Assembly (NCBI RefSeq): GCF_026930045.1
Contig: NC_072731.1
Span: forward strand, 137,882,156 to 137,946,155
DNA: 64,000 nucleotides
Direction: 5' to 3'
Origin: Uloborus diversus
Taxonomy: Eukaryota
In this document: positions 1,641 to 55,790 of the stretch, piece after piece
How the letters are laid out: every line of letters starts with the position of its first letter
Numbering within the stretch: position 1 is the first letter of the stretch
Notes under the pieces: generated by a model
The model's input: the letters and a program-made list of their open reading frames with translations, nothing else
Told to the model about the DNA's origin: nothing
The model's database searches: none
Program-made: the position numbers and the translations under genes

Positions 1641-2399
1641 ATCCAGCCACAAAAAACAACGCAATAATTAACTTGTTTGTACCAAATGCAGAATTAAATT
1701 CTTTCAAGGGTGACTAAAATAGAAATTCATACTGAAATTTAAGTAAAAAATTTTATGTGAAAACAATAATTTCCTTTATTTTGTATTAAAAAGTAAAACA
1801 GCAAAGGTCCTCCCCCCCCCCCATTTTTTTTTCGAAAACATCGTCCAATTCCATTCCAAATCCACCATCACCATTTTCGATGTTTTTTAAGGCCGAAGGG
1901 CCGATGTTTTCTGCAAGTTAGCATTGGCTGCAGATGCCGATGACTAAATTGTTGAACCATCGGCGCCGATGTATCGGCCGGGTCGATGCATCAATCGGTC
2001 GAGTCCTACTTATTATTGCAGTAAGTGATGGCTTCCACTGAACTCTTTTGAGTCAGTATATATCACCCATTTTTTGTGTGTGGATTGAGCTATTGATTGT
2101 AAAGATGTAAGCTTTTATTTCTGAAGTAAATACCGAGCAAGATGGGTTTAATTTTTCTGCCATAACTTAATCATTAATTATAGTACAAAAGCCGACATGA
2201 TCGCTTGTTTTTGATCCGTCAGTGAAAATGTCTTTATAATCAGAATACTTGCTTTTGATATCATGAAAGATTTGTTGATAAACTGTATTAGCGGTGGAAT
2301 TTAGAGAAGTCATTGATTATTGAAGGAATTACTTCACACCATGGTTTATTAGTTTGATTGTGTTGTGAGTTTTGAAATCTGATAGCTGCAGGTCTAAGA

Positions 2400-2960
2400 G
2401 CACCCGACGCATTCGGATCCCAAATGTTGGGGTCATCGAATGATAATGTAGAAATAAAACAACATTAGATGGATTAAAAATATGGAGATGTAGTGGGTGA
2501 TTAGTGCAAGGTTTTATTTTGAAGTGAAAAATTTAAAGAAAGTTTGAGACGTCTATTGTTTAGAGATTGTTCATGTGCAAGGATATATAAACTGTTGATA
2601 GGTTCGGAAGGCTCCTGTGCAGATGCGCATTGCCTGATTATGTATTGGGTCCAGGCCTTTAGATAGCTTTTCGCTGCAGAGCCATAAAGTTGGCATCCAT
2701 AATCGAGTTTTGAGCGTATAAGAGCCCTGTAGATTCTTTAAAGAGACTCTGTATCAGCTCCCCAAGAAGTTTTTGCTAAGACTTTAAGGATATTTAATTT
2801 CAATAAACATTTTTTTTCTTAGCTCTTGTATGTGCGGTATAAATTTAAATTTTTTATCAAGTGTAAGACGATCAAAAAGATGGAAATCAAAGGGAGGCAA
2901 GTCTGGATTGTGATGGGCGGACAGCATGCATCACGAACATCTGTACGCCTTTCTTCAAAG
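2400..2960 (-). mobile_element. Non-LTR retrotransposon (LINE) ORF2 C-terminal remnant, decayed
   Basis: The minus-strand translation gives '...LKVLAKTSWGADTESL*RIYRALIRSKLDYGCQLYGSAAKSYLKALDPIHNQALRICTGAFRT...'. This matches the conserved post-RT block of CR1/jockey/I-type LINEs (consensus IYRALIRSKLDYG..VYGSA.KS.L..LD.IHN.ALRICTGAFRTSP). Stop codons and frameshifts appear on both sides. Confidence 0.7.
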
Positions 2961-3315
2961 TTTCAACACCATTTTCTCACGTGACTGTTATTCATGAAAG
3001 TTTTTTCGTACACGTATCGCATCTGGCGATGAATGTATGCTGCATTGCCCCCTCCCCCTCAGCATGCAGAAATCGTGTGACATCATACAACTTGAAATTT
3101 ACAATTCGCGGGAGATTCTATCATTCCAAAGATATTTAAGTGCTTGCTACGCACTGAGAACTGACAACTACAACCTGGAGTGATAGACGGACATTAAGTA
3201 TACTAGAGACACTGCACATCACATGCGCCCGCCTCTGATTACAACATGCAGAGGAAGACAAATAAAACAGCTACCTTGCAGTCAGTGACATGAAGAAGAG
3301 GTCAAGGTAGGGGTT

Positions 3316-3400
3316 CACACCTGGGTCAGGGGTCATGGCGCAGTTTGCGGTTTGCGCCATTAAAATTTTTGAAGTGGTTGTTTTAGCGATATATATATAT
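3316..3400 (+). repeat. Copy of small repeat family R8 with an 'atggcgcag.ctgcgccat' palindromic core
   Basis: 'caggggtcatggcgcagtttgcggtttgcgccattaaaattttt' resembles 41425-41480 and the reverse complement of 32690-32740. Confidence 0.45.
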
Positions 3401-5904
3401 TTTTTCTTTCGTGTGCTCTCGCTCTCGGGGGAGAGAGTCTTTGTGGTATTTGAAGGGGGCGCGCTATTCAGGGGTGGATACAGACTACCTTTTGTGAGGG
3501 AAGGGGGACATGCTCAGGAATAACTCCCTCCCCGACGAGCGAGCCTACGGTTTGGGGAGGGGGGAGCATTACTGTTGCTTAGGTGTCAGTAAAAAGCTCC
3601 GATTCGGCCAGGAGTGATGCACCCAATGGGGTAAAAACGTTACAAGTTAATTTAATAAGCAATAAAAAGAAATATATTTCAAATACTTACTTTACATTTT
3701 TTTTATAAATTAAAAATATTGCTGCGATCGTTTACATTTTTTTCATAAATTGTTTGAACATAACGTGAATGTACAAGGGTGTCGATGGTTTAGGGGATGA
3801 TGACCCCCATGACCCTCCCCCTGTATCTGCCACTAGCGCCATTGCTCTTGAGGTCATGGGAACTCCTCCATAATGTGTAGTAATACTAACCTTAAAGCGG
3901 GGGAAATTTAGATGCTAAAATCTGATGAAAATCGAATAAGCAGTTGAGAAAAAGGTTATATATTTATCACAGTGAAACATAAATTAAAAACTCTTTCTCT
4001 GTTTGCCTGCCAACATCGATAAACTCGAGTTGCATTTTGAGCGAATGTATTACTTAGAAACAGCTCTGCTTCATTGACGATAAATCTTATCAAAAAATTT
4101 CAATTATGGATGGCCAAAAATTAGCTTTATGTTTTTTAGGTATGAAGTAAGGTGCACAAACTAATTAATCAGGCGAATTTCTGAAAAGTAAAAAAAAAAC
4201 GGGGGGGGGGAGAAAAGACTGGTAGTGGTTAGATTTCTGAAAAGTCAAAATCGACGAAAATATGATCATTGATATTGGTTCACATTAATGTCTTTCAGCG
4301 GATGACAACAATTTAACGAATGCTGACATTCTAAGCATTGTATCAAAAAAAAAAAAAAGAAAAGAAAAAAAAGCCTAAACTACGAGACTAAATGATGTAA
4401 CTAATAAAAAGGCAAATAAAAAAAGTATGTATCGTAAAGACACGTGATTTTTCTCTTTTACTTTCTAAACTGGCACTACACCGGCACGTTTTCTCTCCCT
4501 ACACACTCTTGCTCTTCCTCCGCCTGACTCAGGCATATTCACAACAAAATTGAAAAAGAAAATAGATTATAAACAACGAGAAAATACTCGAAATCTGCTT
4601 TGTAGTTGTTCCCCAAAACAATTAAATATAACAGTAATAATAAATTTAATTTTGTTAATAAAGGTTAACAAACTTATTTCTTGTCTGAACATTAGATCAT
4701 GATTTTAAACTGATGACTTGACTTGAATGAAGGAAATCTTCACTAACCTACATTATTTAAAAAGTCTAAAATGCTCAAAATAAATAAATTATATGCTTGC
4801 GTGAGTTCAGACTTGAAATTAATTTGTTAAATTTAAGCAACAAAATTAACTTAATAATTACTATTATTTTTCATTGTTCTGTCAACAACTAAAACGCAGA
4901 AGTTTTTAATTTTAGTAATTACTACTGTTTTTCATTCTTTTTGGCAACAATTAAAACAGCAACTACGTCACTTCCGTCACACAAAAAGGTTGCGGATCAG
5001 AAGTTCAAAGCCCTTCGCCGAAAAAGTTTCACTTTAAAAATAAGATTATAATAAAAGACACTAAATTTGTAATAAAAACTACATTTTACGAACAATTATG
5101 CATGGTATAAATTTTAGTGAACCAGAGTTGCTTTAAAATCGTGCAATGTATAACATTTAAAAACCGAACCATAAAAACAATAAAACACGTGTTATAAATA
5201 TTTTCGAAGTGTGCTGTGGACAAACATTTGACAATTTAAATTAGTTGAGATCTATTTTTGGATTGATAGTGATCGTTAATTCGAGTATCAAATATAGTGC
5301 TATAAATGTAATGACACTTACTTCATATAAGCATGCTGTCTTGTAAAGGAACTTTACACGGTCGCTTAAAATCCAATAAAACGTTTTCAATCGTTATCCG
5401 TTACCTGCGAAACTTTTAGCGCAAGTAGCTATGTTTAAAACTTTTGGATCGTCTGCTCTTCGGGAGATAAAAGCAGCGCCATCTCGTTGACGTAAAACCG
5501 TAACATGCCACTTCTACGTTGCATTATGAACGAGTTATGTTCCATTTTTGTCTTCCTTGTGACAAAGGGCATATCAAATTGTATGACAGCTTGAGTTCTA
5601 AGAAAGCCAACGAGTAGAGAGAATGTCATTATTTCAAACAATGTTGATCGGTCGGCATTTGTCTTTTCATCGACTATGATTTTTTTTTTTTACATTGATT
5701 CAAATTTGTATCACTTCTGAGAAAATAAGAAAGAAAACTGGAAAAGTATTGCACATGCTACTATTATATTACTTCTTGAACACTAACGATGCCAGGGGAG
5801 CCAACGAGGGTTCTTGAAATTTAAAGGTTAAATTTAGAATATTTTTGATCTCATTTAAGGCTGCTCTCATTTTGTGGGATGCTATTCCGTAGTATTTGAG
5901 GGGG

Positions 5905-5942
5905 CAGTGGCGTAGCTAGACCCGACTTTCGGGGGGGTTACT

Positions 5943-6013
<71 letters not shown>

Positions 6014-6133
6014 CGCTTGGAATTTTTTCCTTTTCTTCTTCTTTCTCATCTCTCTTCTTTTTCTCTTTTGAGACTAACGTTTCGGGGGAGGTTTTGTCCC
6101 CAAACCCCCCCCCCCTTAGCTACGCCCCTGTGA
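5905..6133 (+). mobile_element. MITE-like element with inverted termini enclosing a (TA)31 microsatellite (5948-6010)
   Basis: The left end 'ggcgtagctagacccgactttcggggggg' (5909-5937) and the right end 'cccccccccccttagctacgcccctg' (6105-6130) form an imperfect inverted repeat. The TA tract sits between them. A second, partial copy lies at 1585-1640. Confidence 0.55.
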
Positions 6134-6369
6134 GGGGGTGCGGTACACCATCACTCTTGGGGGGATGGACTCGTCTGGTGACGCACAATGCCCTTTTCTC
6201 CTTAGTCGGTTAAAATCGACTAAGGACCGACTTCTTCTCTTTAGTCGTAATTTCAAAAGTGTACCGTTGAAGAAGTGCACTAAACGGGACATTTTCAAGT
6301 TTTGAGTAAAACGCGTTTAAAGTTGCGGCGGTTGGTATAGGCATTCATCTAATTCTTTTTTCAAAAACT

Positions 6370-6600
6370 TGCTGTATAGCAGCACCTACCAGGGCCGCTA
6401 GTACTGTGGTACTACCTCTTGCCCCAAGACAGAGGAGGGGTTAACCTACCATTTGTAATGGTTATCTCCAAATTTTTAATTTTGGCACTTACATCCCTTT
6501 GCTTCTCATTGCCTTATATGCTTTTGAAAGGATTATGAGATAGTAAAGAAAATAATCTTCATAAGTAAATAAATACAATAGGGATTGGCAAGCAATGCTC
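6370..6600 (+). repeat. Dispersed repeat family R6, copy 1
   Basis: 'cagcacctaccagggccgctagtactg...cctcttgccccaagacagaggaggggtt...ttatctccaaatttttaatt.tg.cactt.catc.ctttgcttct' matches the reverse complement of 41880-42080. Confidence 0.65.
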
Positions 6601-6899
6601 TAAGACAGGGGTTTTCAATCTGGAGAGGCACATAAAAAATCTGGCACAATTAGCAATAATAGTTCCAGAAATATTTAACGCTCTGTTATTCCTTTCGTTG
6701 CTAATTGCACTAGATTTTATGTTTTACCGAAACTATACAGAGCTAGTTTTCCTATCAAGCCTATTGCTTCCACTATTGATACAGCTTCTCATTGAGTTGC
6801 TAAATATTTGGTGTCAGTGTTTTCTCCTCTTAAAAGACAGAATTTATTCACAATAAAAAAGTTCTACTGTTTTGTGTTTAAAACACCCATAATTTCGGA

Positions 6900-7260
6900 C
6901 AAAATAGCTCTTTTATGGCTCCTTTTGATGTTAAATCCTTGTTCACTAACGTTCCGGTTGAGGGCTCTTTGGTACACCTTAAGTATGGATTTTTTGAATT
7001 TCATTTTGCCTGTAAGGAATTTGAGGAATTTATTTTTCTTACTTGTATCTGTTTAGAACAATGTTCTTTTGTTTTTAATGGTAAATTTTATGCTACGTCA
7101 GACGGTCTGGTTATGAGAAACCCACTTTTCCCCATTCTTAATGCCATTTAAATGCATTACATTGAAGTTAAGTTATTCCGAAAATTAGTTTCCATTTTAT
7201 GTTCGCTATGCTGATGACTGTTTCGTACTTTTGAGCAAAACAGTTCGTTTCTTTGTTCAT
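6900..7260 (+). mobile_element. Reverse-transcriptase domain remnant, most likely Penelope-like (PLE) or another non-LTR RT; frameshifted
   Basis: ORF 6915-7151 carries the RT motifs 'FDVKSLFTNVP' and 'FxFNGKFY...G..M..PL.PILN'. In a shifted frame, 7195-7225 encodes 'RYADDCFVL', the catalytic YxDD box. There is no intact ORF, so this is a pseudogenised TE. Confidence 0.7.
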
Positions 7261-8689
7261 TTTCATTTCATTATATTGTTCTGAATATCTTACTTTTGAT
7301 TATCGACTCACCAACCTATAGTGTGACTCTCATAAGTTGAGCAATGCCCTTGACAATGGTTGCCTCTTTTTGGAGCGTTCAGAGGAATAGGGACGCGTTA
7401 AACTATTACGAAAATTCACCTTTCAACTCATGGCCAACAACCTTTCCTTGTTTCCTAAAAAATAAGTAAACATTCACAAGTCCCCCCCCCCCACATAGCC
7501 CAACTTATCAGAACCACACTAATAATCAAAAATATTCTGCTTTCAACATGTTTGTTTCGTGCTGTAAACTTTTGCTCCTCATTTAAACTTCTTAATGCGG
7601 AACGTAACCACCACATTTTTCATTTTTCCTTTTTTTTTTTTTACCATCTATTGTATTTTAGCTTTATTGTGCAAGCTTGCTTATTTGGTTTCCGCTGAAA
7701 AATAGAGCACGAAACATACATCAAATTCCAGCAATTCCCAACTGTCAGTATGGAATCCCAAATGTGTTTCCTCAACTATCCCAAAAACTCATTTCTGTCG
7801 GTACTGCCCTTTACCTTCCCGCGCTTGTGTGGCTATTGATGGTAACTTTGAGACATTAGTTGAATCCATTTATAAAAACTTGCCAAAAAAATCTCAAAAG
7901 AAAATTCTTAGCAGATCTTTTAACATCAAGAATTTGGTTCTTTTGCTATTCTTTTCCTCTTTTAGTTTACAGGTTGCTAAAATCAGGTTGTTAAGCGATC
8001 CCAATTCGAGGCGGGAGTTTTTCCTATTGATAAATTTTCGTTCTCTTCTTTTACAGATTTTATTCATCCTCTTGATTGTTGTGCAATTTATAATTTTAAC
8101 AGACAATGTGGTCTTGCCAACATTGGACAGAAACTTAAAAGGGCTAGCATTGCTCAAAACTTTTGGAATTCAAATCACTGTTCTGATTACAGTTCTTATC
8201 AAATTGTCCAAAAATGACCTTATTCATCAGAGCTTGATTTTGGGGAATGATGAATCGTTGTAATTTATATACCGATCTTCGAGTAACTCTTTATTTTTCT
8301 TCAGATTGATTACTTTTTTTTATTTGTTCTTGCGTTCACTGTTTTTTTTTCTTATTTTTTTTAATGATTTTATTCATGTAACTGGTATCTTTCCGCTCCG
8401 TCATTCTTAATTAGTGTTATTTGTCTGTATATTTCAAGTTTCTTAACTTTATTTTTAAGTTTTCTGCATATATGTTTCGTTCTTTTCTCATTTAATTTCA
8501 ATTGTTTTTCCTCAATCTGTGTTTTCTCCTTTTCTCTGATATCTTTTTTTTTTTTTTTTTTGAGCAATCACGATTGCTCATTGCTTTCATTTGACTGTTT
8601 CTGGCGTTCCTATGATTTTATTTTCCCGCCAGCACCCTCTGCAGCATCACCGTCGACTGGCTCCTCACGATGCTGCTCCTCTAGCGAAA

Positions 8690-9010
8690 GCCGTCTCGAG
8701 ATTGCGTACATATCTTACACACATCCGCATACATACACACACCTACACGCACACATATATACATACACCTACACACAAACACACACACGCATACATACAG
8801 ACACCTATGCATACACACACACACACAAACACATACACACATGCATACAGACACCTATACATACACACACAAACACATACACACATGCATACAGACACAC
8901 AAATACATACAACACCCACAGATATCCCCCCCACACACAAACACCTAACTACCCATACACTCATGCCTAACTACACAAACACACATGACTACATACACAC
9001 ACACACACAC
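8690..9010. repeat. Imperfect compound (CA)n/(CATA)n microsatellite block of about 320 bp
   Basis: CA-rich degenerate dinucleotide and tetranucleotide repeats. They generate the His/Thr-rich artefact ORFs 8560-9016 and 8743-8964. Confidence 0.9.
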
Positions 9011-9319
9011 TCTTGATTGCGAAAAACATAATTTGAATTCAACATGTCAAAATTCAAATAATTTTTTTTTCTACTAATTTGTTTTTTGATTCTCGTACTT
9101 AAGTGAATTACAGCTGGTAAAACTAAATACCCGGTTGAACAGAGACTGGTTGCTGTACTATGTACAGTACGTATATTTCCGTGGCAAGTTCAATGAATAC
9201 TAATTCATATTTTAGTTTTTGTTTCGTTGCAAAAAAAAAAAAAAAAAAGAGTCCAAACACAGAGTCGTGTAGACATTCATATCGTATCAAGGTCTGCTGA
9301 CCAATATTAGTAGTTCATC

Positions 9320-9658
9320 TTTACTAATAATAAAGCTGAAAGTCTCTCTGTCCGGATCTCTGTCAGTCAGGATCTCTGAGACGCGCATAGCGCCCAGACC
9401 ATTCGACCGATTTTCATGAAATTTGGCACAGAATCAGCTTGTAGCATGGGGGTGTGCACCTCGAAGCGATTTTTCGAAAATTCGATGTGGTTCTTTTTCT
9501 ATTCCAATTTTAAGAACAAAATTATCATAAGATGGACAAGTAAATTACGAAATTATCATAACGTGGAACCGTAACATGGGCACAAGCCAATTGGCGAGAT
9601 ACGAAAATATCATAATATGGAACTGTAACATGGGTACAAGCCAACTGGCGAGAAAATT
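9320..9658 (+). repeat. Dispersed SINE/MITE-like repeat family R3, copy 1, with an internal 45-bp tandem duplication at 9555-9655
   Basis: 'tactaataataaagctgaaagtctctctgtc.ggat.tctgtc...gaccgattttcatgaaatttg...ggggtgtgcacctcgaagcgatttttcgaaaattcgat...tttaagaaca...ccataagatggac..gt.aattacgaaattatcat.acgt.gaaccgtaacatggg' recurs at 48701-49010 in the same orientation. Confidence 0.75.
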
Positions 9659-44990: not shown

Positions 44991-46089
44991 AGAAAATACA
45001 TTGAAAACTTGATCTGGTCTATTGTTGTCTGAGTCTACACGTTGTCCTCTGCTTGAAACTGTTAAAAGAGTTTTTTTAGTCCATCATTTACCTTTTTTTT
45101 TTTCAATTTTTTAAAACTTAATCATCACTTGTCGTCTCGAATGATTAATAAAGTTCAACATGGTAAACGTAGGTAACGTTCTTTATTATTTGCCTAGGTT
45201 TTGATATAGGAACATTTGAAAACTAGAAAAATCTCACCAACTAAAGGCTTGGTACCTATACTTAGGTCTCAGAAAATACGTAGGTCTGACAAATTTTAAG
45301 CGAAATAAAAAAATAATAAAAACGAAAACTAAAATGCGAAATCTCACATTTCTTTTATTCCAAATCTCATTAAAAAAAAATATTTTTTTAAAAATTATCT
45401 CAGTTTGTATTTGGTCCGGATTTCAGTCAGCACCTTCTTCAAAAACTCCTATGAGTACAGGCGATAGGGCGACCCCCAAATTTTCTTCTATCTTTTCTTG
45501 CCATTATTTACAATAAATAACACAAAATATCGCGAAAGCATTCCTACAGAGAATAAAATAAAGCCCCAAGCCACTAAAAACCGTGAAAAATAGGTGGACT
45601 ATTGTTGTACCCCAACGTTCCCATTTTCGATAAATGTTGAGAGCTTGTGAAAACTAGGAAGCATTTTAAGTCAACAAGCGGCTTAATTCATAACTGACAA
45701 ATTAGTAAAGCACATCCGAACTTACCAGACCTTGGAAAACAGTATAAGTGGTCTGCTCAAAAGGAGACTTATGTCTCTTCCACGAATGAGTCGAATCACG
45801 CACTAAGAACGACTAAGTTATCTAAGGTTACAAAAACAATGGCAATCTCTGATAAAGCGTCTTTAACTACCTAAATTGTTACACTACCTGGTGTGTTTTT
45901 TTTTTTTTTTTGAACACGTAAGTTCGAAAATGATGCCACTAGAGAGCAAAATTATCGGGATAGTAACAGTGGCCCATTGTTGCCCCCTTGGCGCAAAGTT
46001 GTACCGTTTTACGGTAATGAATGATGATGGTTAAAACTTGCTGCAGTTGGTTGTTTCAACAAGCTGAAAAACTAAGTATATTAGGAATG

Positions 46090-46538
46090 CTTGAAATACA
46101 CCGCCAGCTCAGTCATTTCCAGCCGAGGACTGCAGTTTCGTGCTTATTAGCACTCATCAGCCCGACATAGGAAAGTGACTGAGCTGGAGATGGAAAACCT
46201 CTTAAGGAAGCCAAGAGTGCCAAACAAACTGGTAGCTGAACTAGATAGAATTAGCACGGACCCAGACGAGTGACCGAAACAATGGTTCGGTTCAACTCGA
46301 AGATTGATGGCAAGGTATGGTATATTTAATAAATTACCGCCCATTAGCATTGTTTCGGTCACTCGTCTGGGTCTGTGCTAATTCTAGTTCAGCTACCAGT
46401 TTGTTTGGCACTCTTGGCTTCCTTAAGAAGTTTTCCATCTCCAGCTCAGTCACTTTCCTATGCCGGGCTGATGAGTGCTAATAAGCACGAAATTGCAGTC
46501 CTCGGCTGGAAATGACTGAGCTGGCGGTGTATTTCAAG
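46090..46538. repeat. Near-perfect long inverted repeat (hairpin): arms 46090-46284 and 46348-46538 (~195 bp, ~97% identical), loop 63 bp; flanked by a 13-bp direct repeat 'tatattaggaatg' (46077-46089 and 46583-46595)
   Basis: The reverse complement of the right arm differs from the left arm only by a 4-bp indel ('atag') and about 5 substitutions. The loop end 'aataaattaccgcccattagc' is repeated in reverse as 'gctaatgggcggtaatttatt' at 46558-46578. Confidence 0.9.
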
Positions 46539-47699
46539 TATTTCTGCTTTAGCCCTGGCTAATGGGCGGTAATTTATTGAATATATTAGGAATGATCTTA
46601 TTTTAAGAGATAACTCTTTCATTCAAAAACTGTTATTCTCCTTTAAATAATTGAGCATTTAAAACAATTGTATGTCATTATATTATTGAAGAAGTACGTA
46701 AAAAGAAGACATAAATTACGCAACAGGAAGTCATAGGATTACGTAGTAGGAATTCGTAATTTACGAATTCCTAATCAAAAAAAAAAAAAGAAAGATTCTG
46801 CAAAAGGGCCGTTCCACGAAAAAGTAAACCCTTTGTCCCGCAAGTGTCGGTTGATATATTTCATTAAAAAGTAATAATTTTGAAAGGTAATGACGAAATA
46901 TTTTTATATTAAGATATCACAGATAAGTTCGCAATTTGTTAAGCAGAAAAAAATGTGTTCATTATTATTTTAAAGTATTATTTTTAATGAAATATATGAG
47001 GCGTCACGTGCGGGAGAAAATGGCCGTTTGCCGGAGAATAGCTCGAAAGAGGTTCAATTTAACTTTTAGCAAACTTCTTTGGACGAATTTAAGAATGTGG
47101 CTAAACCGTGGCGCCCTTGTTTTCCACCAACAGATGCGAGTTATTTCTGCAGCGGAGATAACAACTAGGGGCATGGTTTGCTCGCCATATACTTGAAAAC
47201 TTTTCCTGAGGCTTTATTTTTGAAACCATATGCAGAGGTAGAGAATTTCTGTGACGTCAGTGCAAAGCTCAGATCGATGGAATTTTCCCGTTCTACATTT
47301 TTATATCAATACCTTAACTTAAACTATAAATTTGACATCCGAAAATGGGGGTATATTAGGATGCAAAATTTGTAGTTTAATAACCTATCTGTCATCTATT
47401 ATTTACAAGAAACCATAAACCAGATTTCATAAATTTAAAATTAATGACAAAAACTAATTTCAAACTGCTAAGAATCAGTTGCAAAAATACTAATAAAAAG
47501 TGATTTATACAGGTGCTCAAACTTTTTTTGCGATAAAGCAATGGCAAAGAAATAAATTATTGATAGCTATTATAGCAGCAAAGAGTATATTGGCAGAATT
47601 ATAAGTATTATATATCATTTGAAAGTTCGAACGATTTTAGTTCTGTACCAAGTAGTTTTAAGTTATAAATTGTTTTATTAAAAAAAGCCATACGTCTAT

Positions 47700-48700
47700 C
47701 TCCTTCTCGGACTTTTTTCTCGGACGTAAGATTTTTCAAACCCTTCTCCTCTATTCTTACGTAAGATTCCATTTCGTTTTTCTATAGTGCCTAGAAAGAG
47801 TAGTGTGCCGATCGACGGGGGAAAGTGAGGTCAGATCTGAGGAAAATCCAGATCGCGCTGCGCTCGAGGAGTACGTTATATGTTCCTCAATCAGACAGAC
47901 TCGTTTTAAATCTGCGATTGCATGCTGATTTCGCAGTAAAAGCCCCGTTTTTCGGATTGAACTTATTTCTGCGCAAAGGACAAATTCTGTATTAAGTGCT
48001 ATTTATTACATGGGTGTTCATTTATTTTTTGAAGAATATAAAATTACCTTATGCTAATTTATCTTCAATGAAAATAGTAGAATATAAGGGGCCATTCATT
48101 AAATACGTAAGGGTCCCGAGGGGGAGGAGGGTTGGAAAAGCCTCTACGTACCTTGGGGGGCGGGGGGTCAAACTCATTTTTACATAATATTTTCCAAGTC
48201 GGTATTTCACATTAGAAATTGCGCGGTCAACAAGTGATTTGGCAGAGATTATGTTCCATTTGCGTCTGGAAGGTAAGAAACGTGTTAGGATAAGATGTTT
48301 TTTTTATATGTTTTACAAAGAATGAATAGTGTAAAATATACTAAAAGAGTCGCATTGTGTATGACATGTTTTATTTTTAATTAATATTACATCAAAAAAA
48401 AAAAAAAAAATGTCGAAAAAAAACAGTTTAGATTCTAACTTTTCAGTAACTATTTCTTTACGCAAAAGGTTTAATTTAATAATGTGAATTTAATAACGAT
48501 TACAGTGATGTAACGACTCCAAGATTTGTTATTTTATCATTTTGAAAAACAAAATGGAATCTTACGTAAGAATAGGAGGGGGGTTGGTGAAAAATCTTAC
48601 GTATCCTTACATGGGGGGAGGGGGATCAAAAATTGCCAAAATCATCCTTACGTAATTAATGAATGGCCCCTAAGTATTCCAATAACTGCGCGTCTCTTAT
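47700..48700 (+). repeat. Left block of a complex inverted-repeat family (R4) with palindromic 'ggggccattcattaa.tacgta.ttaatgaatggcccc' heads and 'cttacgtaag' motifs
   Basis: 48085-48400 aligns with the reverse complement of 52400-52720, roughly 75-80% over about 300 bp. 47778-47900 aligns with the reverse complement of 52160-52308 ('ctatagtgcctagaaagagtagtgtgccga'). 48556-48625 is the reverse complement of 47715-47775. 48640-48680 is the reverse complement of 48085-48125. Confidence 0.8.
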
Positions 48701-49010
48701 TTCTCTACTAATAATAAAGCTGAAAGTCTCTCTGTCTGGATTTCTGTCTGGATCTCTGTGACGCGGACAGCACCTAAACCGTTTGGCCGATTTTCATGAA
48801 ATTTGATAAAGTTGGTGTGTAGCTCGGGGGTGTGCACCTCGAAGCGATTTTTCGAAAATTCGATTTTGTGTTTTTTTTTTTATTTCAATTTTAAGAACAG
48901 TTTCCGGAGCAAAATTACCATAAGAGGGACGAGTTAATTACGAAATTATCATGACGTAGAACCGTAACATGGGAAGAGCGAATGAACATAACCAATTGGC
49001 GAGAAATTCG
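48701..49010 (+). repeat. R3 SINE/MITE-like repeat, copy 2
   Basis: See the evidence for 9320-9658. Confidence 0.75.
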
Positions 49011-49935
49011 GATTTTAAAAGGCTGAAATTAAAAAAAAGAAAAGAAATTTTAAATATAACTTACGTGCTCGTTGATTCCTTTTGTCCGAAAGTCTTATGG
49101 TCGGTCGCTAACAGTTACCAGGCTTAGCGTTGCTGGAGATTTCCAACCTATTCTCCAGACCTATAAACTGTAGAGGTGGTGCTACCATATACCGTGCCCA
49201 AGTCGGGCTCTTTCTCATTTAGGGGCCTCATTGACTCAGGAGTCGCTCCTTTCTACTTTAAACTCATGCTGGCTACATGAATAGGGCTTGAGTCTCCCAA
49301 GTGGCATTAAAAACAACAACAAACTGCGTCCTTAGTCATCTCGACTGATAATACATTTGCCTTAAAATATAAGCATCAGATTTCCAGTCAATTGTGTAAA
49401 ATTTTGTTTTGAAAACATCCTTGTCTTTGTGTCTACTTCAATAATGATCTTTTTATCGTTAATATTATTTTCCACATAATTTACATTATATACAAAAACT
49501 ACAATATTTGGAGATTTTTTAAATTTTATACAAACCCAATATTCGTTAGGCAAATTAATATGAACAATTTCATTTATAATAGACTAGTTGCAAAACCCGG
49601 CATTGCTCGGGTTAAAATACATTGCATGTTTAATGGTACATAAAATATTTAAGAATTCTCTTTTTAACATAGATAATATAGATTTCTATTTTAAATATTG
49701 AGAGACTTAGTCGACCATTAAACATGCAATGTATAGAGAGTATAACAAATTAATTAACTAATTAATTAATTGAAATTGAAATAATTATAAGTTAAAATAC
49801 GAAACATCTTAGTAAATTGAAAAGTTATGTTTTATTTTCATAATTATTTACATTCTATATTGAACATACAACATATAACAAATCTTAATATATATATAAT
49901 GCTAATGTGCGTACGTAAAGACAGGATTTTCTCTA

Positions 49936-50214
49936 TCACCACCAATTTTGACCTTGAACCTTAAAAACCGGACTGAAATTTTCTTCATGGCATATTAATG
50001 AAGCTCCAAATGAAGTCAATTGAAAACAACAGTTGTATCGACATATATTTTGTAGAAAATGATTAGAGTCTGGTGTTTTTCCAGTCATATATTCGACTAA
50101 TTGTGGTGGTAGTGCATCTAATGCCGATAAATTGACTTTACCACTAGAGCAGCACATACCAGCAGTTTCGCCTTTAAATTTCTGAGCATGGCAATACTCA
50201 CATATCGTATTCAT
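49936..50214 (-). mobile_element. Helitron Rep/Hel N-terminal (Helitron_like_N) fragment
   Basis: The ORF translates to 'CEYCHAQKFKGETAGMCCSSGKVNLSALDALPPQL...FLQNICRYNCCFQLTSFGAS'. This carries the CxxCxAxxFxxExxxxCCxxGKVxL zinc-finger-like motif and the IRxYNxxFxFTSxG motif typical of eukaryotic Helitron Rep N-termini. The Arg-rich upstream stretch is decayed and no helicase follows. Confidence 0.6.
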
Positions 50215-50643
50215 TTTTTCGATGACAATGTTTGGATGTTCACTGTACTGTTTTTTGCAATCATAACTGGAAGCCTGGAGTTCTAAACTGCTTAATTGAT
50301 GTGTAGCAGCTCGTCGTTAGCGTAAAGCAGACATTCTTTCGTTTTTTCTTCTATTTTTCAGTTCACGTTGATCGGCAGATTAACGATTTCTTAGTGATCT
50401 CACTCGAGATCGGGTTTCTTCATTAGTATGTGCTCTTTCCTCTTCAGTTACATTTTCTCTATTTTTTTTACTCCTTTGCGAATAGTCGAAAGACGTTGTT
50501 CTCCTGTTTCTGTTTGACGCGCTACTTTTTTCTTTTTGAATCCAGTTTAGGTTTTGAAAATACTTTCATTCGTCTTGGCATTGTAAATATAAACAGTGTA
50601 ATATGATTACTCAAAACTCATATCTGGATTGGTACACGAAGAT

Positions 50644-50900
50644 AAAGCTACCAAAAAGTCACTGACTTTCGGTTTATATACCATCGAATATTGAAATTTC
50701 TAGTACCAGAACAATCTGGAATAACCAAATAGTTTGTTATTTCTCACTTGTCAAAATCACTTGAATTTATATGATCACTGTTCACTCTTGACTCAATTAA
50801 TCTTTGCGCGACTGTAAGCACGATTCAACTGACGAAAAGTTATTGACTTTTGGTTTATATACTATCGAATATCGAAATTTCTAGTACCAGAACAGTCTAG
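50644..50900 (+). repeat. Two direct copies of a ~68-bp motif about 190 bp apart
   Basis: 'aaagt.a.tgactttcggtttatata.catcgaatat.gaaatttctagtaccagaaca.tct.ga' occurs at 50644-50712 and at 50835-50900. Confidence 0.8.
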
Positions 50901-51460
50901 AAGATTACAAATAGATCTTAGCAGTTGTCCACGTTTTAGAACTACCTAGATCATTCTAAATTTTTTTAGAACGTTCTAGATCATTCTGGATATTTCTAGA
51001 ACCTTCTAAGTCGATTATAACGTTCATAGACGTTTTGCAACTTTCTAGATCATTCTAGAACCTTTTAGAACTTTCTAGATCATTCTGGAAATTTTTAGAA
51101 CCTTCTAGAACATTCTAAGTCGATTATAACGTTCACAGACGTTTTGGAACTTTCTAGATCATTCTAGAACCTTTTAGAATTTTCTAGAACATTCTAAGTC
51201 GATTATAACGTTCACTGACGTTTTGGAACTTTTTAGATCATTCTAGAACCTTTTAGAACTTTCTAGATCATTCTGGAAATTTCTAGAACTTTCTAGAACA
51301 TTCTTAGTTGATTGTAGCGTTTGCGCATGTTTTGGAACTTTCTAGATCATTCTAGAAATATTGAGAATCTTCTAGAACAATCTAGATCGATTGTAACAGT
51401 TGCACACATTCTGGAGTTTTCTAGACTATTCCTAAAATTTTATGAACTTTCCCGTAGTTC
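50900..51460. repeat. Satellite built from ~20-bp 'ttctagaacattctagaacc' subunits arranged in ~80-110-bp higher-order units, about 6 units
   Basis: The unit 'acattctaagtcgattataacgttcacagacgttttggaactttctagatcattctagaaccttttagaa.tttctaga' repeats. Confidence 0.85.
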
Positions 51461-52149
51461 TCATAAGTTAGAAAAGGACAGATATACTTTTTCACATTTT
51501 TGCCACCCACAACCACCCACTTCCACCCACAGCGACCAAACTCCCTTATTCCTACCAGGAGACCAAGGGGTGCTTACCACCCCAAGCAGAAGTTGATTGG
51601 TATTGGTGGTGATAGAGAAAACCCTGTCTTTACCTACGCACATTAGCATTTTATATATATATATTAAAATAAGATTAAGATTTATACGTGGTTATTTCAG
51701 TTTCATCTGCGGAATGATCAAGTTTTATTTTTTTGAAACAGGGAACATTTTTCTTAACTGCATAATTCCTGATGGACCTTTTCTTTGGTAATTTTTTTGT
51801 AAAGTATGTTGGCAGATTTGGGAAAATTGTCGGAATGGCCTCATCTTTCAAAAAAGTTTTCCCCGAGGAATCAAAACTTCCTCACCATTTATAATATGCT
51901 TAAAATGCGTTTCATTAAAATGTTTTTCGAAATGCAGAGCACAATTGAGCAATATTTATCAAAAACTTTATCTAACCTGGGAATTAACGAGTTCCACTTT
52001 AGTTTTTCTTCATCTGCTGGAGCTTTAAAAAGCGTAACTTTTTCCTTATGTGTTTTGTACTCACTTTCAACTTTGATGCCTCTATTAAAAGCCTTGAACG
52101 CTTGTTTCATGAAATATTCACGAAATAAAGGTAAAAAAGAGAAACGCGG

Positions 52150-52720
52150 AACTAAATTGTAACAAAATCCCGCGTCTACTAATGTAAACACCGCGAAATT
52201 GAACGTGCACCTCGACTGCACTGCCATCTAACGGTTTCATACAATTCGTCTTCAAGAATCGCAGGGAAAAAAGCGCCGGTCGGCACACTACTCTTTCTAG
52301 GCACTATAGTTTTTCAAAATGCTGTTAGAAAAGGATAAGTTACACAAAAACTCCCAGTTTGACATAAATCAAAGTGTATTATTTCTCAAATATATTATAT
52401 GATGCAATACTAATTAAAAATAAAAAATACCATACAAAGCGCGATTCTTTTATTATACTTTACACTATTCATTCTTTGCAAAACAAGTAAAACGTAATAT
52501 TTTTTTACCTTCGAGACGAAAATAAAATATGATCCCTGCCAAACCAATTGACCACGCGATTTCTAATAAAAAATATCAACTTGGGAAAATATTGAAAAAA
52601 ATTGGATTTAACCCCCCCCCCCCCCCACCCTCACCCAGCCAAAGTAAAGGTATGTAGAGATTTTTCTAATCCTCCTCCCCTTCGGGACCCTTACGTAATT
52701 AATGAATGGTCCCTTATTTC
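52150..52720 (-). repeat. Right block of the R4 inverted-repeat family (mirror of 47778-48400)
   Basis: See the evidence for 47700-48700. It ends in a C16 run (52613-52628) and a palindromic head 'cccttacgtaattaatgaatggtccc'. Confidence 0.8.
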
Positions 52721-53939
52721 AAAACAGTAGTGGAAAACATTTTCTACCGACAATGCAGTCAAGGCACAAATTTTTAATCTCACAACTTTAAGGGGAAGGG
52801 GGGGGGGGGGACAGAGAAAATTAGGAACGCAGGAAGTGACTATGTTAAAAAATTTTCAATCGAGTTTCTTGTGATCTGCCATATTTTGCAGGAAGAGTAA
52901 AGATGATGATGCGGAAAAGGTTAAGGAGAAATTCTTGAAAAGTAAAAGAACTTGTTCAATTATATGAGTGGCCAAGATCTGATGATGTAGAACATGATGA
53001 TGAACAACTTTGTTTTACCCGACGGCCGCACCTCATCTTAACTAGTCTTTCAGGCCAGAGTACATGCAAAATTTTAATGTTTCAATTTATCTTTTTTCTG
53101 CGGAAAACGAAAAAAGATGGAAAAGAGAAGACAATTACAAACAAAGATTTGTTGCTGACATTGCTAAATGCTTATTTTAATACAGTAGGGTCCTGAAAGC
53201 CCGACCGAAAGTCAACCAAAAAGTGGCCAAGTTTGTAAATGCCAGGTGATTAAAAATGCGTATGTGGTACTATTTTGTGTCCGACAGGAAGTATATATAC
53301 TCGTCTTTTTACCTTAAAACTTAATTTCTACTCGTGCTCCTCTTTTTTTTTCTTTTTCTTTTCCATTTTTAATCTTTTAAAATGATCATGACTCCTCTCT
53401 GGATGGCATTCATCATTTGATAGTCACGGTGCGGCTGAGCGAGGCATATATTTTCAAGTTCCTAATTCACCAATTTTTTTAGGCAACACTTAACCACCGT
53501 TAAAATAACTCGACTCACCGGTGGTTCTCTTCCCCTAACTGCGGGGGCGTTTAAGAAATGGAGCATCTTCGGACGTCATACGGGAAGTTATTTATACGCC
53601 TGCGAAGCGGTGCCGTCAACTTTTCGGGAAAATAAAATAATCTTGAGAGTGGGGGTGTTTGCTTAACCTGCCTCATCTGCGAGTAAGATACGAGGGGATC
53701 ATGTTAACCAGAGAATAAGAACGAGGGGATGCGAGTGGATGAAGCATCAACGACTTGCGCCACAAGCACAGGCTAAATACAAATCCATCGTTTCAGAAAC
53801 GAGTGAGGTAGAGGAAGTGGTGCAAATATGGAAACCCTGTTTTAATTTTTGGTGTATCTAGTTTTTTCATCAATGAAATTTGTCTAAAATCTGGAAAACA
53901 CTTCAAAAAAAGACTATAACAATAACCGTCAAGCGCGGA

Positions 53940-54690
53940 TCCAATGGGGGGTCATGGGGGTCATGACCCCCCCCCCCCTTAGCCAGACCAAACATTACAC
54001 AACAGGGCCTTTTTAATCTTCCTGTTACTGAATTTTTCGAAGGAGAAATTGAGGACCACCCAGTTTGTGAACAAATTTAAATTATATCCAAGCACAAAAT
54101 TATGGGAAAGGGGGGGGGGGGACAAGTGTGGGTCAAGAGGGAGGTCATGGGGTCATGACCCCCCCCCCCCCTAGCTAGACCAAACATAACCCAACAGAGC
54201 CTTTATAATCTTCCAGTTACATATTTTTACGAAAGAGAAATTGAGGATCACCCACTTTATGAACAAATTTAAATTATATCCAAGTGCAAAATTAAGAGGG
54301 GGGGGAGGGGCAAGTGTGGATCCAGGGGGGGGCATGGGGATCATGAGCCTACTCCCCTTAACCAGATCAAACACTACCCATCAGATCCTTTTTATTCTTC
54401 CAGTTACAGATTTTTTCGAAGGAGAAATTGAGGATCACCCAGTTAGTATAAAAAATTTAATTATATCCAAGCGCAAAATTTACGGAGGGGAAAGGCGTGG
54501 GTCCAAGAGGGGGGGGGGATCATGAGGGTCATGACCCCACCCCCCTTAACCAAACCAAACATTACCCACCAGATCCTTTTTAATCTTCCAGTTACAGATT
54601 TTTTTCGAAGGAGAAATTGAGGATCACCCAATTTGTGTATAAATTTAAATTTTATCCAAGCGCAAAAATAGGGGGTGGGGGGAAGCGTTT
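53940..54690. repeat. Satellite of ~188-bp units, 4 copies, with palindromic 'ggtcatgacc' cores flanked by G/C runs
   Basis: The unit is 'gtgggtc.aagaggg...tcatgggg.tcatgacccccccccc.ttagc.agaccaaacat.acc.a.cag.gcctttt.aatcttccagttaca.atttttcgaaggagaaattgaggatcacccagtttgtgaacaaatttaaattatatccaag.gcaaaatt'. ORF 54241-54525 is an artefact of it. Confidence 0.85.
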
Positions 54691-55388
54691 TTGTATTTAA
54701 ATTAGAAAGATTTTCGTGCTGAGAGCTCTGGCTTTAAGCAGTTTTGAAGCAGCATATTGCAGTTATATATAGACTGCAATGCATATCTCAACACAAAATA
54801 CTTGGTACCTCTAAAAAACGATGTAGAGGCTTTGCTTGAAAAAAAAAGTAAAGAGGGGGTGGAGCAGGGGTTAAAGTAATTTTTATTGGATATTTATAAA
54901 CAAATTCTGGCAAATAGGTTTTTCTTTAAAAACCTGGAATTACTTCTTGGATTTTTTTTTAAATTATTTTTTTTTTTTTTAAGTGGAATATATTGTTTGA
55001 ACAGATCATTGATAAACCTCTATTGCGGTTACATCTATATTTGCACATAAACAATTAAAATATTCGCAAAAGAGTTGTTTTGCGGAAAATAAATTTCTTT
55101 AAGTGTGCGTAAAACAGTGAAACCTCGCTTAACGTACACTCCTCATTTCGGACTTTTTTTTTTTTAATTTCCTCCATTTTCTAGGATTAAAACATTAAAT
55201 TTCCCTTTATTAAAGTGGAGACTCTCAAACTCGGTCACGGATACAACTTTTCTTGTAAAAAGGATTTTTACTCTCATCAAAACGAACACTCTTCGACAAT
55301 TTTGGCTAAATGTGTTTAGTTTTCTATCTTAAAGCATTTTTGCCGCAAACTCTGCTAGCAGGTAATAATAACGTAGTTTTATACAAAA

Positions 55389-55790
55389 GTGAGGGATTTT
55401 TATAAAGGACTTTTGCCAGTTAATACATCATCGCTGCAAGTTGAATATCAACTGTGGGTCGCGAAGTGGAGACGGGAAAAGAATCAAAATCCAGTTAAAG
55501 ATTTCCCTCCATGTATCATAAAACTTATCGAAGAATGTGACAAGGACATGTATCCTGGAATAAATTGCCTTCTTCGACTCATAGCTACATTGCCATTTAG
55601 TATTGTCACAAGTGAGCGAACCTTCTCGACATTGCGGCGTTTAAAAACCTGGTTAAAAGCCTCAATGTGTGAGGAATGCCTTGTGGGACTTTCTCTCTTA
55701 AATATCCACAGAGACATTGATGTAAACATTGACCACATAATCACTAGATTCGCAAAGAAGTCGAAAAGGAAGTTAAACTTTGTCTTGTGA
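55389..55790 (+). mobile_element. hAT transposase C-terminal dimerisation (hATC) domain remnant; the N-terminal part is absent
   Basis: The ORF begins with GTG. It carries 'LLRLIATLPFSIVTSERTFSTLRRLKTWLKASMCEECLVGLSLLNIHRDIDV', which matches the hAT family C-terminal motif (…SERxFSxLxxxKTxLRxxMxxERLxxLxLLxIHxD…). The frame is closed by a stop 15 nt upstream. There is no BED or RNaseH-like region in the upstream 3 kb. Confidence 0.8.

Follow-up and report, generated by a model that had tools for sequence, protein, structure and literature searches.

Between 47.7 and 52.7 kb of a 64,000-nucleotide stretch of Uloborus diversus DNA (contig NC_072731.1; the whole stretch is here called the window and all positions refer to it) two inverted sequence blocks face each other across 4 kb, and the question raised by this locus is whether the blocks are the two ends of one large element or belong to different elements. 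A sequence-only reading of the region had proposed a single 5-kb transposon of foldback or composite type with palindromic heads, in which a Helitron fragment and two satellites lie between the arms, and had kept as a fallback the insertion of one family of miniature inverted-repeat transposable elements (MITEs) of about 600 bp in different orientations. The analysis presented here argues strongly that the region is not a single element but a stack of independent transposon insertions, one nested in another. T, a DNA transposon of 4.5 kb, interrupts one MITE copy, M1, and carries within it another copy of this family, M2, in opposite orientation, together with a decayed Helitron. The window has a G+C content of 34%, is packed with dispersed and tandem repeats and reads like animal intergenic or intronic DNA.

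Order of the inverted blocks

When comparing the two sides of the region, the mirror-image arms described earlier could be found in part. A block of about 320 bp, referred to as BCD, is present at 48084–48399 and again, inverted, at 52717–52395 (73% identity over 339 columns, E 6e-58). A second block of 36 nt, referred to as A, is found at 47782–47817 and inverted at 52309–52274, with 34 of 36 positions in agreement, and this is all that was recovered of a mirror block that had been put at a further 150 bp; beyond the 36 nt the similarity gave a score of 14.5 compared with 12.3 ± 2.0 for shuffled sequences, a value reached by 33 of 300 shuffles. The arms are, however, not collinear. On the left side block A (47782) is followed after a gap of 266 nt by BCD (48084–48399), while the reverse complement of the right side begins with BCD (52717 to 52395), continues with a gap of 85 nt and ends with A (52309 to 52274). 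Since the blocks of a foldback element, or of an inverted duplication, should come in equal order on both sides, another explanation was needed.

Transposon T interrupts a MITE copy

The explanation was found by removing a candidate insert and aligning across the junction. With 47783–52315 taken out, the flanks 47724–47782 and 52316–52720 join into one sequence that aligns collinearly to the reverse complement of M2 (48602 to 48080) with 83% identity at aligned sites. The alignment runs unbroken across the joint ...CCATTTyGTTTTTCAAAATG..., where M1 reads ...ATTCCATTTCGTTTTTC followed directly by AAAATG... and M2 reads ...ATTCCATTTTGTTTTTCAAAATG..., and the right arm together with 47724–47782 is therefore one MITE copy, M1. 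M2 is thus a paralogous empty site for the insertion of T, with the heptamer GTTTTTC once where M1 has it on both sides of the insert (Table 1). The target site duplication (TSD) of T is GTTTTTC, or TTTTT (5 bp) if the terminal C/G pair, with the repeat starting from C47782, is counted as part of its terminal inverted repeats (TIRs). The two TIRs of T gave a pairing score of 31 compared with 5.6 ± 1.2 for shuffled sequences.

With the elements separated in this way, each part of the mirror has its own source. The 320-bp mirror is seen because M2, which lies inside T 300 bp from its left end, faces in inverted orientation the large piece of M1 just outside the right end of T, the 36-nt mirror because these are the TIRs of T itself, and the order of the blocks is shuffled because the two inverted pairs belong to different elements. 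As M2 is situated within T and M1 outside T, the arms do not represent the two ends of a single element. The structure is seen in the collinearity across the junction, in the TIRs and TSDs, in the THAP and Helitron homologies described below and in the copies found elsewhere.

The order of events was very probably as follows. A Tourist-like MITE copy, M1, was present in intergenic DNA when T entered it and duplicated GTTTTTC, T being a cut-and-paste transposon with TIRs of 36 nt and a gene, now decayed, for a THAP-domain transposase. Inside T lie M2, in opposite orientation and with its TAA duplication, a dispersed repeat and a 2.1-kb non-autonomous Helitron, and the order of events there is inferred. 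The TIRs of the MITE would probably have been acted on in trans by a transposase of the PIF/Harbinger type, with T depending on a THAP-guided transposase and the Helitron on a rolling-circle RepHel protein.

Table 1. Positions of the elements and their parts in the 47.7–52.7 kb region of the window
Feature	Position	Strand	Remarks
M1, left fragment (A-end side)	47724..47782	+	inverted relative to 48544-48602, with 88% identity
M1, right fragment	52316..52713	+	ends in the B-end TIR 52689-52713, then TTA; 83% identity at aligned sites to M2 reverse complement
T, DNA transposon, 4.5 kb	47783-52308		36-nt TIRs, GTTTTTC duplication, frameshifted THAP remnant
T, TSD left copy GTTTTTC	47776..47782		single GTTTTTC at homologous M2 position
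T, TSD right copy GTTTTTC	52309..52315		same heptamer as left copy
T, left TIR (TATAGTGCCTAGAAAGAGTAGTGTGCCGATCGACG)	47783..47817	+	34/36 complementary to 52274-52309
T, right TIR	52274..52308	-	pairs with left TIR
T, left subterminal region	47818..48084		no coding signal, no similarity to right subterminal region
T, THAP-domain remnant	51822..52059	-	two frameshifts; includes AIPTIF motif; just inside right TIR
M2, complete MITE with TAA duplications	48085..48673	-	element proper 48088-48670, 583 bp; collinear with joined M1
M2, TIRs	48088-48112 and 48646-48670		inverted pair of 26 nt, 96% complementary, 1 mismatch
Dispersed repeat (R3) in T	48702..48973	+	81% identical to 9318-9580, 278 columns
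Non-autonomous Helitron derivative, ~2.1 kb	49584..51680	-	read 51680 to 49584; 5' end ~51680 less certain
Helitron, 3' terminus	49584..49613	-	hairpin AACCCG-N8-CGGGTT (49594-49613), 6-nt spacer, CTAG (49584-49587), then host T
Helitron, inverted duplicate of 5'-terminal ~60-70 nt (I3 left arm)	49888..49946	+	95% complementary to 51602-51660
Helitron, Rep/Hel N-terminal coding remnant	49948..50316	-	ATG open reading frame 50214-49936, 92 aa
Helitron, 181-bp two-copy repeat	50641..50902		matches the Eumeta and Psylliodes loci
Helitron, tandem array (ttctagaac satellite)	50931..51451		79-bp units, periods 79/109/188; integral module of the Helitron family
Helitron, 5'-terminal region (I3 right arm)	51602..51680	-	matches Eumeta 5' region

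The MITE family

The family to which M1 and M2 belong consists of elements of ~465–585 bp with 25-nt TIRs starting GGGGCCATTCATTAATTACGTAAGG and a 3-bp TSD. M2 ends in GGGGCCATTCATTAAATACGTAAGG and the reverse complement of GGGGCCATTCATTAATTACGTAAGG and is flanked by TAA on both sides (48085–48087 and 48671–48673). The open reading frames (ORFs) of M2 reach at most 63 aa, so that by ORF length this short element (<800 bp) has no coding capacity, and its single-strand fold has a z-score of -6.8 compared with shuffled sequences. The extra inverted copies of parts of the family, noted earlier inside the left block, are indeed present at 48544–48684 and are the other end of M2.

The left TIR of M1 has been lost. 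Upstream of 47724 nothing with significant similarity to the family was seen, and a comparison with the A end of M2 gave there a score of 6.0 against 7.65 ± 1.4 for shuffled sequences, and the TTA that follows the TIR of M1 is seen at its one intact end only. The sequence TTA followed by AAAAAAGCCAT was considered as the left end of M1 and dropped, the left end of M1 being without similarity to the A end of M2.

A single scan of metagenome contigs with the core of the MITE TIR revealed five loci. One of them (L002) harbours a complete copy of 465 bp (963–1427) with both TIRs, both ends of ~110 nt and TAT on either flank, a second (L004) has a copy of ~430 bp with both ends present, and the remaining three have one MITE end each. 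The TSDs of the two complete copies are accordingly TAA/TAA (M2) and TAT/TAT (L002), the latter of 3 bp but not TWA. Conservation is strongest in the terminal ~110 nt of each end and the internal length is variable. Viral contigs scanned with the TIRs of both the MITE and T gave no matches, and a literature search with the TIR sequences returned no papers. With defined TIRs and TSDs and with copies in unrelated metagenome contigs, it is the fallback of the sequence-only reading that has essentially stood: the locus contains independent insertions of a MITE of about 600 bp in varied orientation, an outcome that this reading had itself named as leaving nothing special here.

A module of ~55 nt containing G/C tracts is situated near each end of the MITE in direct orientation (48123–48172 and 48575–48630, 77% identical), and it is also seen at 47729–47752 and 52658–52681. 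Because these modules are direct, the ends of the MITE are not simple mirror images beyond the 25-nt TIR.

Tourist-like MITEs are mobilised by PIF/Harbinger transposases, as in the case of mPing and Ping/Pong in rice. By its features the present family would match the Tourist-like MITEs, the kind moved in trans by such transposases, an assignment to superfamily made on the general features of Tourist-like and PIF/Harbinger families.

The proposed palindrome

The heads of the arms had been described as a perfect 40-bp palindrome, ggggccattcattaattacgtaattaatgaatggcccc, centred on TACGTA, and this sequence has no match in the window, even when allowing 3 mismatches. Only its 20-nt half-site CCATTCATTAATTACGTAAG occurs, at 48092 (+), 48647 (-) and 52690 (-), and the palindrome apparently arose from merging two orientations of this half-site. 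The motif cttacgtaag, CTTACGTAAG, had been reported at several sites and was found twice only, at 47756 and 48561; it is internal and not conserved across MITE copies, unlike the TIR with its TTACGTAA box. As for the suggestion that the TACGTA-centred palindrome is a protein-binding site, the only part conserved across the copies is TTACGTAA inside the TIR. This conserved box would fit a sequence recognised by the transposase, and a special palindromic operator is unsupported. The box TTACGTAA also matches the D-box consensus of PAR-bZIP proteins, and boxes spread by the MITE could occasionally be co-opted as regulatory sites.

Coding remnant and affiliation of T

Just inside the right TIR of T, translation in three frames together spells a THAP domain, ...KVTLFKAPADEEKLKWNSLIPRLD... 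CALHFEKHF... LKDEAIPTIFPNLP. The frameshift-corrected peptide matches the Pfam profile THAP (PF05485) with E 9e-7 and 30 bits (cut-off 23.9); the query was corrected by hand at two frameshifts and lacks the first 9 positions of the profile. The individual uncorrected ORFs of the THAP region gave no Pfam match. No catalytic transposase domain with an RNase-H fold was found, as the ORFs of T that were scanned gave no Pfam match, and no signal was seen in the remainder of T (47818–48084 and 48974–49583). Without a catalytic domain and without a homologue of the remnant, T is therefore a decayed or non-autonomous DNA transposon bearing a THAP domain. An affiliation with P-like elements, proposed from the THAP domain and a possible 7-bp TSD, is plausible but not established. 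The termini of T (TATAGTG...) are unlike the usual terminal consensus of P elements or hAT elements.

The Helitron inside T

The N-terminal remnant of a Helitron Rep gene that had been recognised at 49936–50214 was confirmed as a minus-strand ORF with homology to Helitron Rep/Hel proteins in their N-terminal region. A full HMMER search gave 1718 homologues, of which the long ones (860–1797 aa) have Helitron_like_N and PIF1 domains lying downstream of the part that was matched, and the closest named relatives are short hypothetical proteins in the moth Eumeta japonica (73% identical) and the leaf beetle Psylliodes chrysocephala, a flea beetle (71% identical). The protein homology extends up to the left arm of an inverted repeat pair, here referred to as I3 (Table 1), and stops exactly at its inner edge.

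When comparing at the DNA level, 49573–51684 of the window matches loci of both species (L006 in Eumeta japonica and L007 in Psylliodes chrysocephala) with 68–80% identity and with the same order of parts: 5' region, tandem array of 79–80 bp, 181-bp repeat, N-terminal ORF and 3' region. The matching stretches are 4928–9568 in the moth locus and 4396–6561 in the beetle locus, and in the ORF part the two are ~80% identical to each other. Since ORF, arrays and ends all match, the Helitron remnant and both satellites are parts of one 2.1-kb Helitron. The two satellites of the sequence-only reading, the tandem array at 50931–51451 and the 181-bp repeat, are both present but are not separate features. 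In both insects a homologous array occupies the corresponding place, with 4 units of 79 bp in the moth and 12.6 units of 80 bp in the beetle. In the beetle locus a second, unrelated long tandem array is situated upstream of the Helitron copy (2288–3917).

At the 3' end the homology with Psylliodes runs through ...AACCCGxGCAAxGCCGGGTTTxGCAxCTAG and stops exactly there, and this hairpin followed by CTAG is a canonical Helitron 3' end. Further inside the 3' region a perfect 21-nt inverted repeat, with arms 76 nt apart, was identified at 49617–49637 and 49714–49734 (CATGTTTAATGGT / ACCATTAAACATGC). Since the arms are also found in the Eumeta copy, the family has conserved this larger stem-loop in addition to the terminal hairpin. 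The candidate for the 5' terminus is A followed by TCTTAATC at 51680, and in the moth and the beetle the element appears to begin ~25 nt beyond the corresponding point, with TCTAC/TCTATC.

The Eumeta copy has one 5' region only (4928–5010), to which both arms of I3 correspond, so that the left arm represents the 5'-terminal ~70 nt of the element, duplicated in inverted orientation. The duplicate sits at the breakpoint of an internal deletion, where the truncated ORF gives way to the 3' part; the homologous points are 2.8 kb apart in the moth. It may record a strand or template switch in rolling-circle transposition, and a second, mostly deleted copy is another candidate for its origin. The possibility that I3 (49888–49946 / 51602–51660) represents the TIRs of another transposon with a captured piece of Helitron was also considered and is ruled out by the moth and beetle loci.

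Helitron-type elements with satellite-like arrays and horizontally transferred insect Helitrons have been documented (PMC7492417; PMC5714489; PMC12001565). The DNA identity of the three copies, which includes the non-coding tandem array, suggests that this Helitron family may have moved horizontally between distant lineages (moth, leaf beetle and the window copy), with the 79-bp array as a conserved module, a tentative reading that is at present less likely than not.

Alternative explanations

Two copies of a MITE family within 5 kb could also be the outcome of a local hotspot, if the family reinserts nearby or targets such sequence. Three TIRs of the family can be recognised in the 64-kb window and every one of them lies in this 5-kb stretch, and the flanks beside the B-end TIR are similar, TTATTTC in M1 and TTATATTC in M2. 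However, two copies cannot establish clustering without a genome-wide density, and transposons from several families without relation to each other are simply abundant here. M1 and M2 are moreover 17% diverged at aligned sites and are therefore not a recent local duplication, which also counts against a hotspot, and we regard this explanation as improbable.

The single foldback-type or composite transposon of ~5 kb, with the inverted blocks as functional ends and the Helitron fragment and satellites as captured cargo, is less probable still. It would account at once for ~320-bp inverted blocks lying 4 kb apart with a highly significant match and for the second inverted pair next to them, but not for the different order of the blocks on the two sides. 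In addition, the long arm on the left, M2, is in itself a full element of 583 bp that has TIRs and a TAA duplication, the right long arm resumes beyond T at 47724–47782, and the outermost left terminus has no TIR. The arms lack the tandem sub-repeats typical of foldback elements and the palindromic head is absent. Equivalent, collinear and terminal inverted arms, by which a foldback or composite element is defined, are not found here, the two arms being non-equivalent as termini.

Least credible of all is an inverted segmental duplication of an ancestral segment that held the 36-nt motif as well as the MITE, other elements having inserted between the two copies afterwards. It would explain why two different blocks are both inverted on the two sides but is contradicted by the unmirrored order of the blocks, by the widely different identities of the two pairs (94% and 73%), by the direct 7-bp duplication flanking the 36-nt motifs and by the flanks of T joining into one continuous MITE copy.

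Several points also weigh against the nested insertions that we favour. T is known from one copy, and its mobility is a single case of TIRs, TSD and empty site: its TIRs begin TATAGTGCCTAGAAAGAGTAGTGTGCCGA, a sequence found nowhere else in the window, which thus has no second copy of T, and the viral contigs held none. The THAP peptide was without relatives in PDB and in a word-indexed protein search, and the length of the TSD of T is ambiguous, from 5 to 7 bp. For the MITE, the copy count covers the window (n=2) and five metagenome contigs, and the TSDs come from two complete copies only, one of which (TAT) is not the canonical TWA. M1 is without its left TIR, which makes its own insertion boundaries uncertain, and the middle third of the alignment between M1 and M2 (52322–52395 and 48524–48400) is poorly conserved and rich in indels. 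With these points taken into account, nested independent insertions still appear very probable as the explanation of the locus.

Dispersed repeat and neighbouring features

The R3 copy between M2 and the Helitron, which had been described as similar to a short interspersed nuclear element (SINE), holds as a dispersed repeat with a second copy in the window (Table 1). Regarding the SINE idea, no tRNA genes were found in the window with ARAGORN and nothing reached the Rfam gathering score. The repeat starts with TCTCTACTAATAATAAAG at 48702–48973 and with TCTTTACTAATAATAAAG at 9318–9580, resembling a Helitron-type 5' terminus, and it may be a short Helitron-derived element, not a SINE.

Just left of the region, at 46083–46545, a 463-bp near-perfect self-inverted repeat was identified (87% over 477 columns). 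Each of its arms contains a match to Hammerhead_HH9 below the gathering score of 52, at 46107–46177 (-) with 27.9 bits and at 46451–46521 (+) with 26.3 bits, with an intact core CUGAUGAG...CGAAAC...GUC. The pair could be of the Penelope-like-element or retrozyme type. When scanning Rfam by E-value, hammerhead-like matches were the only ones obtained, all of them outside 47.7–52.7 kb.

On the right side a tandem array with a period of ~190 bp and 80–85% identity between units is located at 53930–54682, just outside the region. The ORF at 55377–55787 (+) contains a hAT C-terminal dimerisation domain (PF05699, E 6.5e-7), with closest relatives at most 55% identical, and is the remnant of another DNA transposon, 3 kb to the right of the region and on the opposite strand to the THAP remnant.

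Comparison with known systems

The value of this analysis is mainly corrective, as an apparent giant foldback element consists of three ordinary classes of transposon nested in each other, and dissecting such structures requires alignment at the level of the junctions after removal of the candidate insert. As by-products, termini and TSDs were obtained for an apparently unnamed Tourist-like MITE family, and a decayed THAP-bearing DNA transposon was recovered. Both T and the MITE may represent families not described before; their kinds are familiar. The Helitron array, conserved across insect orders, is a further example linking Helitrons, dispersed satellite-like arrays and horizontal transfer.

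The likeness to Foldback (FB) elements is superficial and goes no further than the presence of inverted blocks, each a few hundred bases long and separated by several kb. Here, in contrast, the arms are neither terminal nor collinear, are without tandem sub-repeats and lie each in a separate MITE copy.

The MITE family resembles Tourist-like MITEs in being short, non-coding and AT-rich inside, in its ~25-nt TIRs beginning GG(G)GCC and, among the few copies covered here, in a 3-bp A/T target duplication (TAA in M2) and in dispersed, diverged copies of variable internal length. It differs in that one complete copy has TAT instead of TWA, in that its ~55-nt G/C-tract module is in direct and not inverted orientation and in the TTACGTAA box held by its TIR.

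T is comparable to elements of the P-element/THAP9 type, and to other THAP-bearing DNA transposons such as THAP-hAT fusions, in its TIRs, here of 36 nt, and in a target duplication that is short and on one reading 7 bp long, and its THAP domain lies directly behind one terminus, as expected for the N-terminal THAP domain of a P-element/THAP9-type transposase. Unlike these, T has no surviving catalytic transposase domain, and its TSD could be 5 bp.

The Helitron agrees with known non-autonomous Helitrons and Helentrons in its 3' hairpin with CTAG and its Rep/Hel N-terminal remnant, and with array-bearing and horizontally transferred insect Helitrons in its built-in 79-bp array, kept across species, and in DNA identities of 68–80%. 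Compared with the moth and beetle copies, the window copy alone carries the inverted duplicate of the 5' ~70 nt.

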